Positions 1,289 to 18,981 of a stretch of DNA of 64,000 nucleotides are shown here, one piece after another. The stretch's first letter is position 1; every line of letters starts with the position of its first letter. A program made the translations under genes and the position numbers. The notes below the pieces were generated by a model. The model worked only from the letters and a program-made list of their open reading frames with translations, was not told the origin of the DNA and searched no databases. Origin of the DNA: Escherichia phage ECO4; sequence record NC_054911.1; one strand, written 5' to 3'.

Positions 1289-1540
1289 TTATCCTTTCAT
1301 TGAAGGCGTAACGGTTGTTAAATACTTAATCATAGCTTCAGCTTCTGATTTTGACAATGAAATTTCTCCATTGTTTTGACGAATAGAAATAAAATCCGGA
1401 TGACGGTCACCACCAGCTTTTAAAACACACATATAAGTATCAGTTTCGCCTTCAATATTTGAAATGATTGAAGCAGTTCCACATGAATGCGGTTTTTGAT
1501 AAATCAATACAGCTTTTCTTCCGCCATTTGGACTGCTCAT
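1289..1540 (-). CDS. hypothetical protein (start uncertain, overlaps the upstream ORF by about 90 nt)
   Basis: ORF track; ATG at 1538-1540. Confidence 0.3.
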   Translation of the reverse strand: MSSPNGGRKAVLIYQKPHSCGTASIISNIEGETDTYMCVLKAGGDRHPDFISIRQNNGEISLSKSEAEAMIKYLTTVTPSMKG

Positions 1541-1811
1541 AGGCTTTTAATACATCAAACAAATCAGTTCTTTTATCAATAGCTAAAATGTTATTTTCAT
1601 CTTCAATGTTAAATCCTTCGGATACTTCATAAAGTGTCACCCATAAATCGCCAATATCAATAACAGCGTTCACTTTTCCATGACTTTCAAGAGCATGACA
1701 AATTTTCTTGATTTCGTCATAACTCATTTTAATAATATCATCTCCTTGAATAAGAAAGATGTCATTTTTAAATTCAACACGAATTAAACCACTTCCACTT
1801 GAAATAAACAT
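1452..1811 (-). CDS. hypothetical protein, 119 aa
   Basis: ORF track; GAGGA Shine-Dalgarno upstream of the ATG. Confidence 0.5.
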   Translation of the reverse strand: MFISSGSGLIRVEFKNDIFLIQGDDIIKMSYDEIKKICHALESHGKVNAVIDIGDLWVTLYEVSEGFNIEDENNILAIDKRTDLFDVLKAYEQSKWRKKSCIDLSKTAFMWNCFNHFKY

Positions 1812-10124: not shown

Positions 10125-10598
10125 TTATTTAAATGATTTGACGTACTGAACAGAACCTTTACTATTCACGAAAGCGATTTTACCATTTTTATTATACATG
10201 GTAGCAGTACGCTGATAGCCATAAGTTTGCTTACCAGATTGATAACCAACTAATGCAAAATTATCTTCACCCATTTTATTCTGTTTAGCGCGAATGCGTT
10301 CATGACCATGTGCCATAAGAACCTTAGCATCACCCGTTGCAATGGATCTACGAGTTTTTTCATCTTCAACTGTATTAACAAAATCATCAAATGAATCAAA
10401 TTTAGCATGAGATTTATTATACAGTTTTCCATCTACTGCATAATTATATCCTTGCACATCCATCTCAACTTCTGTACCATCATCCAATACAGCAGTGATT
10501 TTCTGTCCTTTTTTAAATTTCAAAAGATCAGTAAAAGATTCAGCAATAATTTGAGAATTAATAGCTGCTTCAGTGATAAATTCTTGATATGTTTTCAT
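10125..10598 (-). CDS. internal-protein-like head protein with N-terminal capsid-targeting sequence, 157 aa
   Basis: N-terminus MKTYQEFITEAA closely matches the ipI N-terminus in this window (MKTYQEFTST). Confidence 0.6.
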   Translation of the reverse strand: MKTYQEFITEAAINSQIIAESFTDLLKFKKGQKITAVLDDGTEVEMDVQGYNYAVDGKLYNKSHAKFDSFDDFVNTVEDEKTRRSIATGDAKVLMAHGHERIRAKQNKMGEDNFALVGYQSGKQTYGYQRTATMYNKNGKIAFVNSKGSVQYVKSFK

Positions 10599-12899: not shown

Positions 12900-13273
12900 C
12901 GTGATTCCTTAACAAATTTCATAATTTCATCAAATTCATGTGCAGCAAGTTTAAGCTGATGTTCCTTTTTAATCTTTTTACACTGGGCTTTCCAATCACG
13001 TACACGTTTACGATAGTGTCTTCCTTGATACCAGTATCCCACCCAATTTACAGGTACTAATAAAAATGGAACTATCATTGGAAGAATTAGTGTTGACGCA
13101 AATATTATATTAGATTCAATATCAGTCATAACATCTATAACTATTCCAACCCCCAGTAGAATTACAAATGATACAGCTATTACAGGACCTATTAATACAT
13201 CAGTAGAAATTAGCTGGCGCTTTAATTCATACTTCAACGGTTTACTTGGAAGATACATTGATGGCTTTGACAT
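12881..13273 (-). CDS. small membrane protein, 130 aa, two TM helices
   Basis: ORF track. Confidence 0.5.
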   Translation of the reverse strand: MSKPSMYLPSKPLKYELKRQLISTDVLIGPVIAVSFVILLGVGIVIDVMTDIESNIIFASTLILPMIVPFLLVPVNWVGYWYQGRHYRKRVRDWKAQCKKIKKEHQLKLAAHEFDEIMKFVKESRCKSQN

Positions 13274-13844
13274 ATTCTCTACATTCCTTCACAAATTTTT
13301 CTAATAATAAATCGCTTTCAAAATTGGGATTTTCTACGAATTTATCAAAAAGATCATCAACAATAGTTAAGATATTCTTTTTACTAAGAATACGCTTATT
13401 TTCATGCTTCGTTTCAGAATCAACTATAAGAGTAAAGAAATATTTCTTGCCCTGAAATTTTACAGTAGTATCAATATAGAATAAATTTGACTTTTGTAAA
13501 TTACGTTTAAACCATGCATCACTTAAACTATAAACGCCAAGATAATCATAATCGTCGTTTAAATAACAGACCGTCCATTCAGGAGAAACAAAATCAGTAA
13601 ATTCAACGTCAAAATCGCATGTTAATGAATGAATTGATTCAATACTGTTAATAAGTATTCCAGGACGTATTAAAGACTTTTTACCTCTAGAAAATCTTCC
13701 AGAAAGATTTTCATCAGTTTCATATGAAGAACCCCAATAATAATTACGTCCTTCTGCCATACGTTTAAGAGCATTTAATAATTGGTCTGGAACATCAACT
13801 TGTCTTTGGAATTCTTCAAACATTGAATTGAAATCACTTTGCAT
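13242..13844 (-). CDS. hypothetical protein, 200 aa
   Basis: ORF track. Confidence 0.5.
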   Translation of the reverse strand: MQSDFNSMFEEFQRQVDVPDQLLNALKRMAEGRNYYWGSSYETDENLSGRFSRGKKSLIRPGILINSIESIHSLTCDFDVEFTDFVSPEWTVCYLNDDYDYLGVYSLSDAWFKRNLQKSNLFYIDTTVKFQGKKYFFTLIVDSETKHENKRILSKKNILTIVDDLFDKFVENPNFESDLLLEKFVKECREYVKAINVSSK

Positions 13845-13892: not shown

Positions 13893-14486
13893 TTATTTCA
13901 GAGAATTAATATATTCCTGAACATCGGCAGAGGTAGTTTCAACCCCAGAAATATTGCCATTAAAGGTTTCAACTCGGGCAAGAGTATCTTCAATATCAAC
14001 CTTAGTCAGCGCTGCAATTTCAACTACATCATCAGCAGTACTAATTCCGAGGGCATTCGCGGCGCGAGTTTCACGGATATATTCCAATTTAACTGCAAGT
14101 TCTTGGCGAGCATCATCTAACTCAACTACTTTCTTGGCGATTTCAATTCGCATTTCAGCATAACCATCAGCTTTAGTAGTCAGCTGCTCAGCTGTTCGAC
14201 GATATAGTAAACCGAGTTTAGCATGCATTGTTACATCTTGACCTTCAGAAAGGAGCTTGCGAATTTCGCGCTCTTTTGATTCGGCCTGCTTATTCTTTTC
14301 GACAATAAGTTCACGAATACGCTTTTCTTCGTTAATAGATTTAATGGAAGCAGTTTTTAGGTCTTTAATCTTATCAAGTAGTTTTGCTGCTGCAGCAGTA
14401 TACTGTTCTTCAACAGATAGATTTTTAGCCATAACAGAACCAAGTTTAGTGCGAATAAACTCAACAATTTTCTTCAGTGTGTTCAT
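13893..14486 (-). CDS. coiled-coil protein, tentatively PspA/IM30-like, 197 aa
   Basis: Long heptad-rich helical sequence with segments resembling PspA ([15 protein letters not shown]); tentative. Confidence 0.4.
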
Positions 14487-15103: not shown

Positions 15104-15367
15104 TTATTTCATATTATTGAAATATTCTTCTGCAATTTCGTCGTTATCATGATAAACTTTAGAAGACAGTTTAACATAACCTTCAGCAGTGAACATGTTA
15201 ATCACAACCTTTACAGTATACCACTGACCATCTTCATTACCCATTACTGCGTAAGTTTCAAACATCGGATGATCAGGACCGATAACTTTAATATCATTCA
15301 CTGTACGACCAAAATCTTCTGAAACACATTTCATAAAGAAGTTGAACAGTTCGCCGTAATTATCCAT
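15104..15367 (-). CDS. hypothetical protein, 87 aa (track ORF trimmed to ATG with GGAGA SD)
   Basis: Track start is TTG; ATG at 15365-15367. Confidence 0.5.
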   Translation of the reverse strand: MDNYGELFNFFMKCVSEDFGRTVNDIKVIGPDHPMFETYAVMGNEDGQWYTVKVVINMFTAEGYVKLSSKVYHDNDEIAEEYFNNMK

Positions 15368-15440: not shown

Positions 15441-15573
15441 AGTTTTGTGAAAAATTTTTTAAAAAGTTTTGGGGAATTCTAGGGCAAGGAGGGGAAATCA
15501 AAGGATAGGATAATATATTATAAAGGGTAGAAACTAAATGATGCCTAGAGAGGCCTGGAAAGGCCTAGATACC

Positions 15574-15604
15574 AAAAAGCCCCAACCTTTTGGTCGGGGC
15601 TAAG
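15574..15604 (-). terminator. intrinsic terminator hairpin plus T-run; copy 1 of a 31-bp direct repeat
   Basis: AAAAAGCCCCAACCTTTTGGTCGGGGCTAAG; 10-bp stem with one mismatch; identical to 16131-16161 except one loop base. Confidence 0.6.
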
Positions 15605-15745
15605 AATGTTATTTGATTTGTTTAGCAGACCAAATGCGGTCTTTAATAATTTTTTGGATGTCTTCAACATACTCTAGGTCATGAGCATGTGGGTTATCTT
15701 TAAAGCTATGAGCACGAGCTAGCTTTTGGCCTTCAGTTTTGATTA

Positions 15746-16084
15746 CTAAAAGCTCTTTAAGGATAGCTTCATATTTGGAGATAATTCCTTTAACGATATT
15801 TTTTTTTCTTGTGCGACTTTAGGATCTGCTTTAGGAGCAGGTTTACCCGAAGCCTTTGCAAAAGCAGCGCCAGTAGCAACTAAACTTTTCCAGGCCATAC
15901 TAACTGCATTTCCCGTAAATCCTTCCGCTTTCATGTCGCGTGCGAACTGAAATCGCGATTCATCAGAAGCATCTTTGTAAGAATATTTACCCGCTGCAAT
16001 GGCTGCTTTTGCGACAGCTTGAATTTCGGTGCTAGATGCTTCATTTAACACCGCTTCATTTAAAAATTGAGTATATGATTTCAT
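15746..16084 (-). CDS. internal-protein-like protein with capsid-targeting-sequence-like N-terminus, 112 aa
   Basis: N-terminus MKSYTQFLNEA resembles the IP leader MKTYQEF; Ala/Lys-rich; own late promoter and SD. Confidence 0.55.
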   Translation of the reverse strand: MKSYTQFLNEAVLNEASSTEIQAVAKAAIAAGKYSYKDASDESRFQFARDMKAEGFTGNAVSMAWKSLVATGAAFAKASGKPAPKADPKVAQEKKISLKELSPNMKLSLKSF

Positions 16085-16120
16085 CTTATTTCCTGTTTTA
16101 ATTCGTGGATTTAATATACT

Positions 16121-16128
16121 TATTTATA
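16121..16128 (-). promoter_or_regulatory. T4-type late promoter -10 element (TATAAATA on the minus strand)
   Basis: Plus strand TATTTATA, 37 nt upstream of the ATG at 16084. Confidence 0.55.
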
Positions 16129-16130
16129 CT

Positions 16131-16161
16131 AAAAAGCCCCAACCTTTCGGTCGGGGCTAAG
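16131..16161 (-). terminator. intrinsic terminator hairpin plus T-run; copy 2 of the 31-bp direct repeat
   Basis: AAAAAGCCCCAACCTTTCGGTCGGGGCTAAG. Confidence 0.6.
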
Positions 16162-16465
16162 CCTTGCGGCAACCTTGTCGGGGTTCCACCTGCTAAGGCA
16201 AGTGTTTGTACGAAACGCCGGGATTCGAACCCGGTTATCAAGCAGTTGACGCTACTCAATATTTTTAAAAGGCCATATCTCGACCATATCCGAACGTTCC
16301 GTCAAAAACGCTACTCGGTTTACGGCAAAGATATTTCCTCGAATCGATAATTCGGTGCGCCGTTTCTGCTGTGATAGTAAAGAGCCAGAACACAGTAAAA
16401 CTGTGGGAGGAAACTATACTCCAGGGAACATCAGTCCGACGACTTACCGGTAGCGACCCGGTTTC
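16162..16465 (-). ncRNA. candidate stable structured RNA(s) with a tRNA-like T-arm; no credible ORF
   Basis: About 300 bp, GC-richer than flanks, between the 16466 ORF and the terminator; perfect T-arm-like element at 16218-16234; only ORF is antisense. Confidence 0.35.
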
Positions 16466-16816
16466 TTAGTATTCTTTTAAAGCATCAACCTGTTCACGAC
16501 GTTTACGCCATAAATCAATTACTTCATACGCAGATTCAGCATTTCGAATTGGACGGCATTTATATAAAGACTTGTGATTTTGATATTGTGTAGATAACGG
16601 AATTTTATCTAAAAGGTCTTTACGTTCAAAATATTCGTAACCATCTAAACCAAATGAACGATTTTTGAGAAATTGCCAATGACCAAATTCGTTTTCGACA
16701 TAAACATAATCTGCGTGTTGATAAAGCAAATTAGTTTCACGAGATGAGATATGGTTTTCATATTCATTGAAGTAAAATGTTAAATCATGAACTACTAAGT
16801 AAACATTACCTTTCAT
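16466..16816 (-). CDS. hypothetical protein, 116 aa
   Basis: ORF track; directly downstream of the tRNA array. Confidence 0.5.
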   Translation of the reverse strand: MKGNVYLVVHDLTFYFNEYENHISSRETNLLYQHADYVYVENEFGHWQFLKNRSFGLDGYEYFERKDLLDKIPLSTQYQNHKSLYKCRPIRNAESAYEVIDLWRKRREQVDALKEY

Positions 16817-16834
16817 ATTTTCCTCACTTATAAT

Positions 16835-16910
16835 TGGTCGAGGCAGTAGGGATCGAACCTACGACCCAGGACTTAGAAGGTCCTTGCTCTTCCTTCTGAG
16901 CTATGCCTCG
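16835..16910 (-). tRNA. tRNA-Arg (anticodon TCT), CCA encoded
   Basis: Manual cloverleaf fold of the reverse complement; anticodon loop CTTCTAA. Confidence 0.8.
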
Positions 16911-16914
16911 TATT

Positions 16915-16989
16915 TGGCGGACGTGATAGGATTCGAACCTATAACCAATCACTTAACAGGCGATCGCTCTGCCATTGAGCTACACATCC
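16915..16989 (-). tRNA. tRNA-Asn (anticodon GTT), CCA encoded
   Basis: Manual fold; anticodon loop CTGTTAA; T-loop TTCGAAT. Confidence 0.65.
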
Positions 16990-16993
16990 AAAT

Positions 16994-17080
16994 TGGTGGG
17001 GAGTGATGGAGTCGAACCACCCGAGTCGCAATGACAATGGATTTACAGTCCACACCGCTACCTCTACGGGATAACTCCCC
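16994..17080 (-). tRNA. tRNA-Tyr (anticodon GTA), type II with long variable arm, CCA encoded
   Basis: Manual fold; anticodon loop CTGTAAA. Confidence 0.65.
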
Positions 17081-17089
17081 AAATTAATT

Positions 17090-17164
17090 TGGTGGCCCTG
17101 GGTGGAATTGAACCACCATCTGGCGATTATGAGTCGCTTGCTTGAACCTTCCAGCTACAGGGCC
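17090..17164 (-). tRNA. tRNA with CAT anticodon (Met, or Ile reading AUA after anticodon modification)
   Basis: Manual fold; anticodon loop CTCATAA; one A-C mismatch in the anticodon stem. Confidence 0.7.
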
Positions 17165-17165
17165 T

Positions 17166-17241
17166 TGGTGCTGATTGACGGAATCGAACCGCCGACCTTC
17201 TCATTACAAGTGAGTTGCTCTACCTACTGAGCTAAATCAGC
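17166..17241 (-). tRNA. tRNA-Thr (anticodon TGT), CCA encoded
   Basis: Manual fold; anticodon loop CTTGTAA. Confidence 0.8.
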
Positions 17242-17246
17242 AAAAC

Positions 17247-17336
17247 TGGCGGAGGCGATAGGATTTGAACCTATGAGTCGCCGGAGCGACTGCCGGTTTT
17301 CAAGACCGGTGCATTAAACCACTCTGCCACGCCTCC
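17247..17336 (-). tRNA. tRNA-Ser (anticodon TGA), type II, CCA encoded
   Basis: Manual fold; anticodon loop CTTGAAA; long variable arm. Confidence 0.8.
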
Positions 17337-17338
17337 AG

Positions 17339-17412
17339 TCTCCGCGGCAGGATTTGAACCTACGACATTCTGCTCCCAAAGCAGACGCTCTACCAAACTG
17401 AGCTACACGGAG
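17339..17412 (-). tRNA. tRNA-Pro (anticodon TGG), CCA not encoded
   Basis: Manual fold; anticodon loop TTTGGGA. Confidence 0.8.
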
Positions 17413-17422
17413 TAAATTAAAT

Positions 17423-17496
<74 letters not shown>

Positions 17497-17501
17497 AAAT
17501 T

Positions 17502-17588
17502 TGGTGCGAGAAGTGGGACTCGAACCCACAAGGAAATCATTCCGCAGCATTTTAAGTGCTGTGCCTTTACCAATTTGACCATTCTCGC
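17502..17588 (-). tRNA. tRNA-Leu (anticodon TAA), type II, CCA encoded
   Basis: Manual fold; anticodon loop CTTAAAA. Confidence 0.8.
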
Positions 17589-17589
17589 G

Positions 17590-17662
17590 CTGGGAATAAA
17601 GGACTCGAACCTTTGCATCCTGGAATCAAAATCCAGTGCCTTACCAACTTGGCTAATTCCCA
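17590..17662 (-). tRNA. tRNA-Gln (anticodon TTG), CCA not fully encoded
   Basis: Manual fold; anticodon loop TTTTGAT. Confidence 0.8.
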
Positions 17663-18696: not shown

Positions 18697-18981
18697 TTAC
18701 AAAAGATTTTTAGCAATAATTTTAAGCTGAGCTACTGAAATATGCTTGGCTTTAAACAAAGCAGTTTCTTCAGCAGGTGAGATAACGATTGTAGCACCAT
18801 CTTTCTTAGCGGACCATCCATCACCCAGGTAAACAGTACCTTTGACTTCTTCGCCATCAACCAGGCTAATCATCGGTTTACCTTCACGTCCTTTGTTTGC
18901 TTTAATAACTTCAGAAGTAAGGGTCGCTTCAGTCAAAGTAGAAGCGTTAGTCGTTGAAGTGAATTCTTGATAAGTTTTCAT
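18697..18981 (-). CDS. ipI: internal protein I (packaged head protein)
   Basis: 94 aa; capsid-targeting leader MKTYQEF; position between the tRNA array and 57B as in T4. Confidence 0.8.
   Translation of the reverse strand: MKTYQEFTSTTNASTLTEATLTSEVIKANKGREGKPMISLVDGEEVKGTVYLGDGWSAKKDGATIVISPAEETALFKAKHISVAQLKIIAKNLL

Follow-up and report, generated by a model that had tools for sequence, protein, structure and literature searches.

Between the e.8 homologue and the stable RNA genes of Escherichia phage ECO4 lies a small late transcription unit whose product is, in our reading (probability about 0.6), a packaged internal protein; ECO4 carries a frameshifted allele of this gene, and the gene-free state of phages T4 and PST would have arisen by recombination between terminator hairpins. 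The stretch of DNA analysed, hereafter the window, is a T4-like (Tequatrovirus) segment of ECO4, 64 kb in length. Newly described here is a specific, widespread and unannotated protein family that has a leader, is encoded outside the classical ip sites, combines a late promoter with a stem-loop and contains a recurrent frameshift hotspot.

Organization of the locus

The cassette is situated between the e.8 homologue and the rnaC/rnaD/tRNA cluster, and the minus strand is used throughout. Its features are listed below.

15104-15367, minus strand: e.8 homologue, with a sigma-70-like promoter at 15439-15411
15569-15604, minus strand: repeat copy 1, serving as intrinsic terminator of the cassette gene; the stem-loop (15578-15601) has an AAAA loop and is followed by a U-run
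15609-15798, minus strand: out-of-frame remnant of the C-domain, 62 codons and a stop (NIVKGIISKYEAILKELLVIKTEGQKLARAHSFKDNPHAHDLEYVEDIQKIIKDRIWSAKQIK, then stop), open and matching relatives
15746-16084, minus strand: the ORF in its present state (112 aa), identical to ECO4 gp159 (ASZ77262.1 / YP_010068372.1)
15799-15807, minus strand: A9 homopolymer (T9 on the plus strand), A7 in intact orthologues
16040-16084, minus strand: leader-like codons 1-15, MKSYTQFLNEAVLNE, with two L-x-E gp21 sites, after E10 and E15
16089-16094, minus strand: Shine-Dalgarno AGGAAA, from the sequence
16121-16128, minus strand: box TATAAATA of the T4 late promoter type; the ATG follows after 36 nt
16126-16161, minus strand: repeat copy 2, which terminates the tRNA/rnaD/rnaC operon; stem-loop 16135-16158 with a GAAA loop
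16209-16463, minus strand: rnaC and rnaD homologues, from alignment to T4, ends approximate

The 112-aa frame starting with MKSYTQFLNEA, its own Shine-Dalgarno sequence before the ATG and its late promoter had been proposed in a first-pass annotation of this DNA, and all were found in place, as was the pair of 31-nt hairpins (15574-15604 and 16131-16161) differing in one base of the loop. With up to 3 mismatches allowed, this hairpin occurs exactly twice in 64 kb, compared with 0 copies expected from 100 shuffles, and the repeat extends to 36 nt with 94% identity (15569-15604 and 16126-16161). Both copies fold on the minus strand, that is in the direction of the gene, into a 10-bp stem with a tetraloop followed by a U-run, with folding energies of −21.7 and −20.7 kcal/mol (z about −3.4). 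Copy 1 starts 7 nt past the stop codon of the intact frame, and in relatives the intact gene likewise stops 7 nt before the downstream hairpin. The 3′ GTAT of copy 2 overlaps the late promoter box, and the homologous site in the T4 record X03016 is annotated as a potential terminator. Assignment of the hairpins to a dispersed repeat family was rejected, because the window holds only two copies.

Taken alone, TATAAATA is weak evidence for a promoter, as it has 24 matches in the window versus about 10 expected. The box occupies the same position in most orthologous loci read, and two loci carry AATAAATA instead. A search for a sigma-70-like site upstream of the gene gave no match in 16085-16165. 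By its anatomy the locus is a self-contained late unit (late promoter, Shine-Dalgarno sequence, gene, terminator) that immediately follows the tRNA/rnaD/rnaC operon terminator and in which the cassette gene would be transcribed late from TATAAATA.

The adjacent tRNA cluster (16466-17662, minus strand) encodes ten tRNAs (Arg, Asn, Tyr, Met, Thr, Ser, Pro, Gly, Leu and Gln) and has no segB; tRNA-His, present in close relatives, is missing from it, and a 116-aa ORF (16466-16816) is found between rnaD and tRNA-Arg. Rfam searches of the flanks returned tRNAs only, with no rnaC or rnaD model.

The frameshifted allele of ECO4

Comparison with intact copies from G4507, BECP11, KarlGJung and seven IMG/VR loci identified the ECO4 ORF as a frameshifted and truncated allele of a gene that encodes 154-157 aa in relatives. 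All ten intact copies read contain GAAAAAAAT with seven A residues, while the window has nine. Through the +2 shift, 17 out-of-frame residues take the place of the last 62, the protein ending with AQEKK-ISLKELSPNMKLSLKSF and a stop, and the C-terminal domain, which is the most conserved one, is removed; in the displaced frame of this domain (15609-15798) no ORF of at least 30 aa is listed. No protein identical to the 112-aa product is known apart from ECO4 gp159 (ASZ77262.1), and the A9 version had no exact match in the phage record collection. Of the 60 closest records listed, 55 have A7. By tblastn, at least 80% of the protein was matched in one place in 466 of 510 phage records, and the gene was split in about 3 of 60 sampled records. 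Other run lengths were registered as A6 (111 aa) in SfPhi01, F26, 235Ecol030PP and metagenome contigs, and as A8 (97 aa) in G28, T4_ev240, teqhal and EC128, with comparable truncations also in a second, Mosigvirus-like lineage.

Constraint within the gene is strongest in the C-domain (dN 0.037, dS 1.35, dN/dS 0.03), and the N-domain evolves fast (dN 0.27). Since it is this most constrained part that is lost, the A9 allele is, judging by its sequence, probably defective or leaky. It could have been produced by replication slippage from A7 to A9 at the boundary between the linker and the C-domain, which would give the 112-aa product devoid of the latter.

The extra residues may instead be a sequencing or assembly error, with ECO4 really encoding a normal 157-aa protein. 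We take this possibility seriously while leaning against it. A9 is indeed unique to the ECO4 record, the frame downstream of it bears no further damage, the nearest relatives at the locus (99.7–99.8% identical) have A7, and the window holds one other isolated frameshift relative to BECP11. However, the window is not a generally error-prone assembly: isolated indels are few when it is compared with a 94–99% identical relative and do not occur in its 19-58 kb structural block; short reads seldom produce a +2 error in a 7-mer; and the variants with A6 and A8 recur in independent records and metagenome assemblies, just as similar truncations recur in the second lineage.

The second isolated frameshift belongs to a 173-aa gene of BECP11; in the window (1289-1811, minus strand) a 1-nt insertion around 1530, giving CC in place of C in the coding strand, divides it into ORFs of 119 and 83 aa.

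Comparable cases are the Streisinger frameshift hotspots of T4, which are homopolymer runs in the rII and e genes. As in these hotspots, the length of the A-run changes in a non-essential gene, recurrently and independently; unlike them, the variants of the cassette gene represent natural or stock variation among sequenced isolates, and its A-run lies exactly at a domain boundary. Programmed frameshifting or transcriptional slippage as the main reading was rejected, because the conserved state is the in-frame A7 and A9 is confined to the ECO4 record. Rescue of the A9 allele is a matter of speculation: either a −1 ribosomal shift on A_AAA_AAA or one A added by RNA polymerase would restore the C-domain, as a step of −1 leads from the shifted frame back to the wild-type one. 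It is very improbable that the A-run serves as a contingency switch for a packaged protein, where slippage would toggle phage lineages between full-length and N-domain-only products and the leaky A9 allele would allow one genome to make both forms.

Protein family and predicted structure

The intact orthologue and the ECO4 ORF, the latter over profile positions 1-101 only, match PHROG 2280, a family of unknown function. By tblastn the gene was found in 510 records of phages of Escherichia, Shigella, Klebsiella, Yersinia, Salmonella, Citrobacter and Serratia, and the annotation among the records listed was always hypothetical or an uncharacterized "Phage protein". Members of the family were retrieved only from T4-like phages by word-indexed as well as exhaustive searches, and when 1.8 billion representatives were searched exhaustively with a profile, 13 proteins came up, all of them T4-like phage proteins or fragments. 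For the cassette protein Pfam gave no family (sub-threshold noise only) and PADLOC no match; PDB sequence profiles gave nothing better than E above 0.1, Foldseek against PDB no match below E 0.6 (ferritin-like helical noise only), and a fold search of BFVD only members of PHROG 2280.

In the AlphaFold (AF2) model of the intact protein (mean pLDDT 80) a disordered leader (pLDDT below 50 for residues 6-14) is followed by a three-helix N-domain (18-71), a low-confidence K/P/A linker and a helical C-domain that opens with a 37-residue helix. The mature part of the intact protein (142-147 aa, pI 9.4–9.5, 24 K+R) is predicted to be helical and is lysine-rich and basic; the intact precursor has a pI of 9.4 against 9.5 after maturation, and the truncated form 9.7–9.8.

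KarlGJung (Bas37) and three IMG/VR loci have a second unit between the cassette gene and e.8, consisting of a 187-aa ORF starting with MKTYAEFLTEAA and a different hairpin of its own. This ORF also falls into PHROG 2280, as a remote paralogue (hhalign probability 92%, E 7.5e-7). Two paralogues of the same family, 189 and 178 aa in length and both with leaders resembling the targeting signal (CTS) of internal proteins, are encoded in Yersinia phage fHe-Yen9-01 (locus L012, 1922-3037, plus strand), where the pair makes up a two-gene unit preceded by one hairpin and TATAAATA, in the order reverse to that of KarlGJung.

Leader and probable packaging

T-even phages carry diverse internal proteins that share only a CTS (PMC3012670; PMC9026906). 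In work on IPIII, a leader of 10 residues was enough for encapsidation; targeting depended on positions 4 and 7, and gp21 cleavage at L/I-x-E on positions 8 and 10 (PMC9026906). We used the CTS criteria of Mullaney & Black as summarised in PMC9026906. The leader of the ORF, MKSYTQFLNE, has Y4, F7, L8 and E10 followed by Ala, thus agreeing with all four mapped positions, and contains the gp21-type sites L8-N9-E10/A and L13-N14-E15/A. The targeting determinants (aromatic residue 4 and hydrophobic residue 7) are kept in all 19 aligned members of the family, L8 is invariant, and the pattern M-x-x-[FY]-x-[EQD]-[FIVL]-L-x-E-[AGS] fits 19 of 19, while the mature parts go down to about 21–25% identity. 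Resemblance to the leaders of internal proteins, noticed already at first pass, was borne out: MK.Y..F[LI].E is present in 2 of 580 ATG frames, those of the ORF and of the IpIV-type protein.

Because the leader has the residues that target T4 internal proteins to the prohead core, the product is most likely packed in the head. The sequence MKSYTQFLNE/AVLNE/A would direct it into the prohead core, the gp21 protease would then cut after E10 and/or E15, and the protein, trimmed to about 15.5 kDa, would be carried in the head with the DNA. For PHROG 2280 as a whole, the conserved leader suggests that the product is probably a packaged internal protein; its ejection into the cell and its host target are speculative. 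A search for virion proteomics or N-terminal sequencing of any family member found no usable report in the literature, the Yersinia fPS paper containing no proteomics.

The leader with Y4, F7, L8, E10 and the following Ala is not the only trait in common with T4-type internal proteins. The gene has a late-promoter box, encodes a small basic lysine-rich product, and is located in a plastic region near other ip genes, being polymorphic among relatives. Unlike known internal proteins, the cassette protein has two domains, its locus is between e.8 and rnaC, and its mature part (PHROG 2280, no Pfam family) lacks similarity to theirs in sequence or predicted fold; none of the listed records annotates it as an internal protein, and packaging is here a prediction. 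At the level of profiles kinship with known Ip families fell away: IPI (Pfam PF11634) and IpIV (DUF7412) matched the ipI and IpIV-like genes of the window but neither the ORF nor the intact orthologue.

The IpIV-type internal protein of the window (157 aa; 10125-10598, minus strand; Pfam DUF7412, PHROG 3155) is encoded to the left of denV. Between denV and e, where T4 has ipII and ipIII, the window has neither, and its internal-protein complement and layout therefore differ from those of T4. The ipI homologue (18697-18981, minus strand; Pfam IPI_T4) starts with MKTYQEFTSTTNASTLTE followed by Ala. It lacks L/I-x-E at positions 8-10, and since the first such site is at 16-18, its propeptide is longer than that of the IpIV type and of the cassette gene.

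Fitness data and possible function

It is doubtful that the protein is an injected counter-defence factor travelling on a mobile recombinational cassette, as was supposed at first pass. Precedents do exist: T4 IPI blocks GmrSD (PMC3012670), and Bas37_0260, a CTS-bearing protein encoded at the ipI locus, is an McrBC inhibitor (10.1101/2025.11.20.689424). Fast evolution of the N-domain (dN 0.27), presence/absence variation at the locus and the second paralogue of some phages would also agree with such a role. However, in the HIDEN-SEQ study of Bas37, which is KarlGJung, the orthologue bas37_0244 was non-essential, with 29 of 34 TA sites hit, and was undepleted on CFT073, CFE299, CFE303, CFE331 and CFE336 (log2FC −0.11, −0.30, −0.14, 0.00 and +0.39; adjusted p = 1) (10.1101/2025.11.20.689424). 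Frameshifted alleles persist in several isolates, and against mobility of the cassette stands the position of its gene, which is syntenic across several phage lineages rather than scattered.

The same study found Bas37_0260 as an inhibitor of McrBC, hence its screens can detect functions of this kind. Bas37_0260 comes from the very phage that carries the intact cassette orthologue and is likewise a small protein unrelated to known internal proteins except for its N-terminal packaging-type signal; in contrast to its demonstrated phenotype, bas37_0244 had none in the same screens. Counter-defence is thus unsupported, since the Bas37 orthologue is non-essential and its disruption had no fitness effect on K-12 or the five clinical E. 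coli isolates.

Two neighbours responded otherwise. The homologues of e.5 and e.6 (window 13242-13844 and 13893-14486, minus strand) correspond to bas37_0239 and bas37_0240, which were strongly depleted on CFT073 (log2FC −3.6 and −6.5; adjusted p 0) and not on the other isolates read; they are better anti-defence candidates than the cassette gene. The 187-aa paralogue bas37_0243 (locus L003, 1808-2371, minus strand), next to the cassette orthologue and absent from the window, was scored "Essential" in HIDEN-SEQ (1 of 48 TA sites hit), though T4 and the window phage do without it. Hoc and a homing endonuclease were also scored essential in this library, so the call for bas37_0243 may reflect a difference between stock and reference, possibly a hairpin-mediated deletion, rather than true essentiality.

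We consider it unlikely that the cassette protein is a cytoplasmic late protein which stays out of the head and owes its CTS likeness to shared ancestry of the 5′ end or to chance. In favour of this reading, its mature part is unrelated to known internal proteins, and the literature search gave no virion report for the family. Nevertheless, the leader is maintained family-wide while the mature N-domain diverges to about 21–25% identity, it agrees with all four functionally mapped CTS positions, its motif is rare in the window, and paralogues share it too.

Presence, absence and origin of the cassette

Comparison of the locus across T-even relatives revealed a repeat-bounded indel. In T4 the order is e.8, one hairpin and rnaC, with no gene; its sequence follows the left flank of the window through the hairpin and then continues as the right flank, the difference being an exact repeat-bounded 557 bp. 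The gene is also absent between e.8 and the tRNA cluster of PST, and in BYEP01 and SHFML-26 the T4 empty-site query was matched in one uninterrupted piece (sampled table). Other lineages have, at the same site, the same order of stable-RNA terminator, late box, Shine-Dalgarno sequence, gene and terminator, namely Mosigvirus-like contigs, Yersinia phages, Klebsiella phage KP01 and Enterobacter phage Entb_43. In those distant lineages neither hairpin is a copy of the other; the duplication is specific to Tequatrovirus.

As the gene is syntenic after the stable-RNA terminator in several phage lineages, it appears to be an old resident of the site, and its presence/absence polymorphism is best read as loss. 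Most simply, the compared sequences point to the T4 empty site as a deletion by recombination between the 36-bp copies: homologous recombination between the hairpins would remove exactly the gene and one hairpin, as in T4 and PST. The direction of the T4 difference, loss versus gain, is taken here from synteny. Of the recombinational module proposed at first pass, the repeat-bounded indel relative to T4 is retained, but free movement is not, the gene being a syntenic resident in several lineages.

The opposite order of events, with T4 preserving the ancestral empty site and the cassette inserted into the terminator with duplication of the hairpin, seems improbable: exact duplication of the target hairpin does look like an insertion footprint, and the literature on PeSL cassettes documents both excision and insertion (PMC2839356), but orthologues occupy the same place behind the same late promoter in distant lineages with non-copy hairpins, and the gene is present in most records where it or the site was found (510 records have the gene, whereas of 40 sampled matches to the T4 site only about 5 were clearly empty).

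Deletion between the hairpin copies, the preferred reading, has a counterpart in the PeSL (promoter-early stem-loop) cassettes of T4-type phages (Arbiol et al. 2010; Comeau et al. 2014). Short flanking stem-loops mediate gene shuffling in these phages (PMC2839356); excision of cassettes between stem-loops has been documented, and patches under 50 bp are enough for T4-type recombination to act on (PMC2839356; PMC4122927). Like PeSL cassettes, the locus has a short GGGG...CCCC terminator stem-loop by a promoter and on both sides of a non-essential gene (the orthologue being non-essential in Bas37), and the indel breakpoint between relatives is inside the repeated motif. Unlike them, it has the late TATAAATA box in place of a sigma-70 early promoter, two hairpin copies in 64 kb instead of many dispersed ones, and an old syntenic gene as cargo instead of an ORFan.

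Significance

We recommend that annotations mark the ECO4 gene as a frameshifted allele and describe the PHROG 2280 family as a putative internal head protein. The cassette gene provides a recurrent frameshift hotspot that removes one domain, and the filled, doubly filled and empty sites form a natural series for gene loss driven by terminator repeats. Absence of the gene from T4 itself may be the reason why the family has escaped study. The heads of T-even phages are loaded with small proteins of various kinds, and some of these counteract host restriction once they reach the cell. If its product is packaged, PHROG 2280 would be an unannotated addition to these proteins, encoded by roughly 500 sequenced phages whose hosts include Escherichia, Shigella, Yersinia and Klebsiella.
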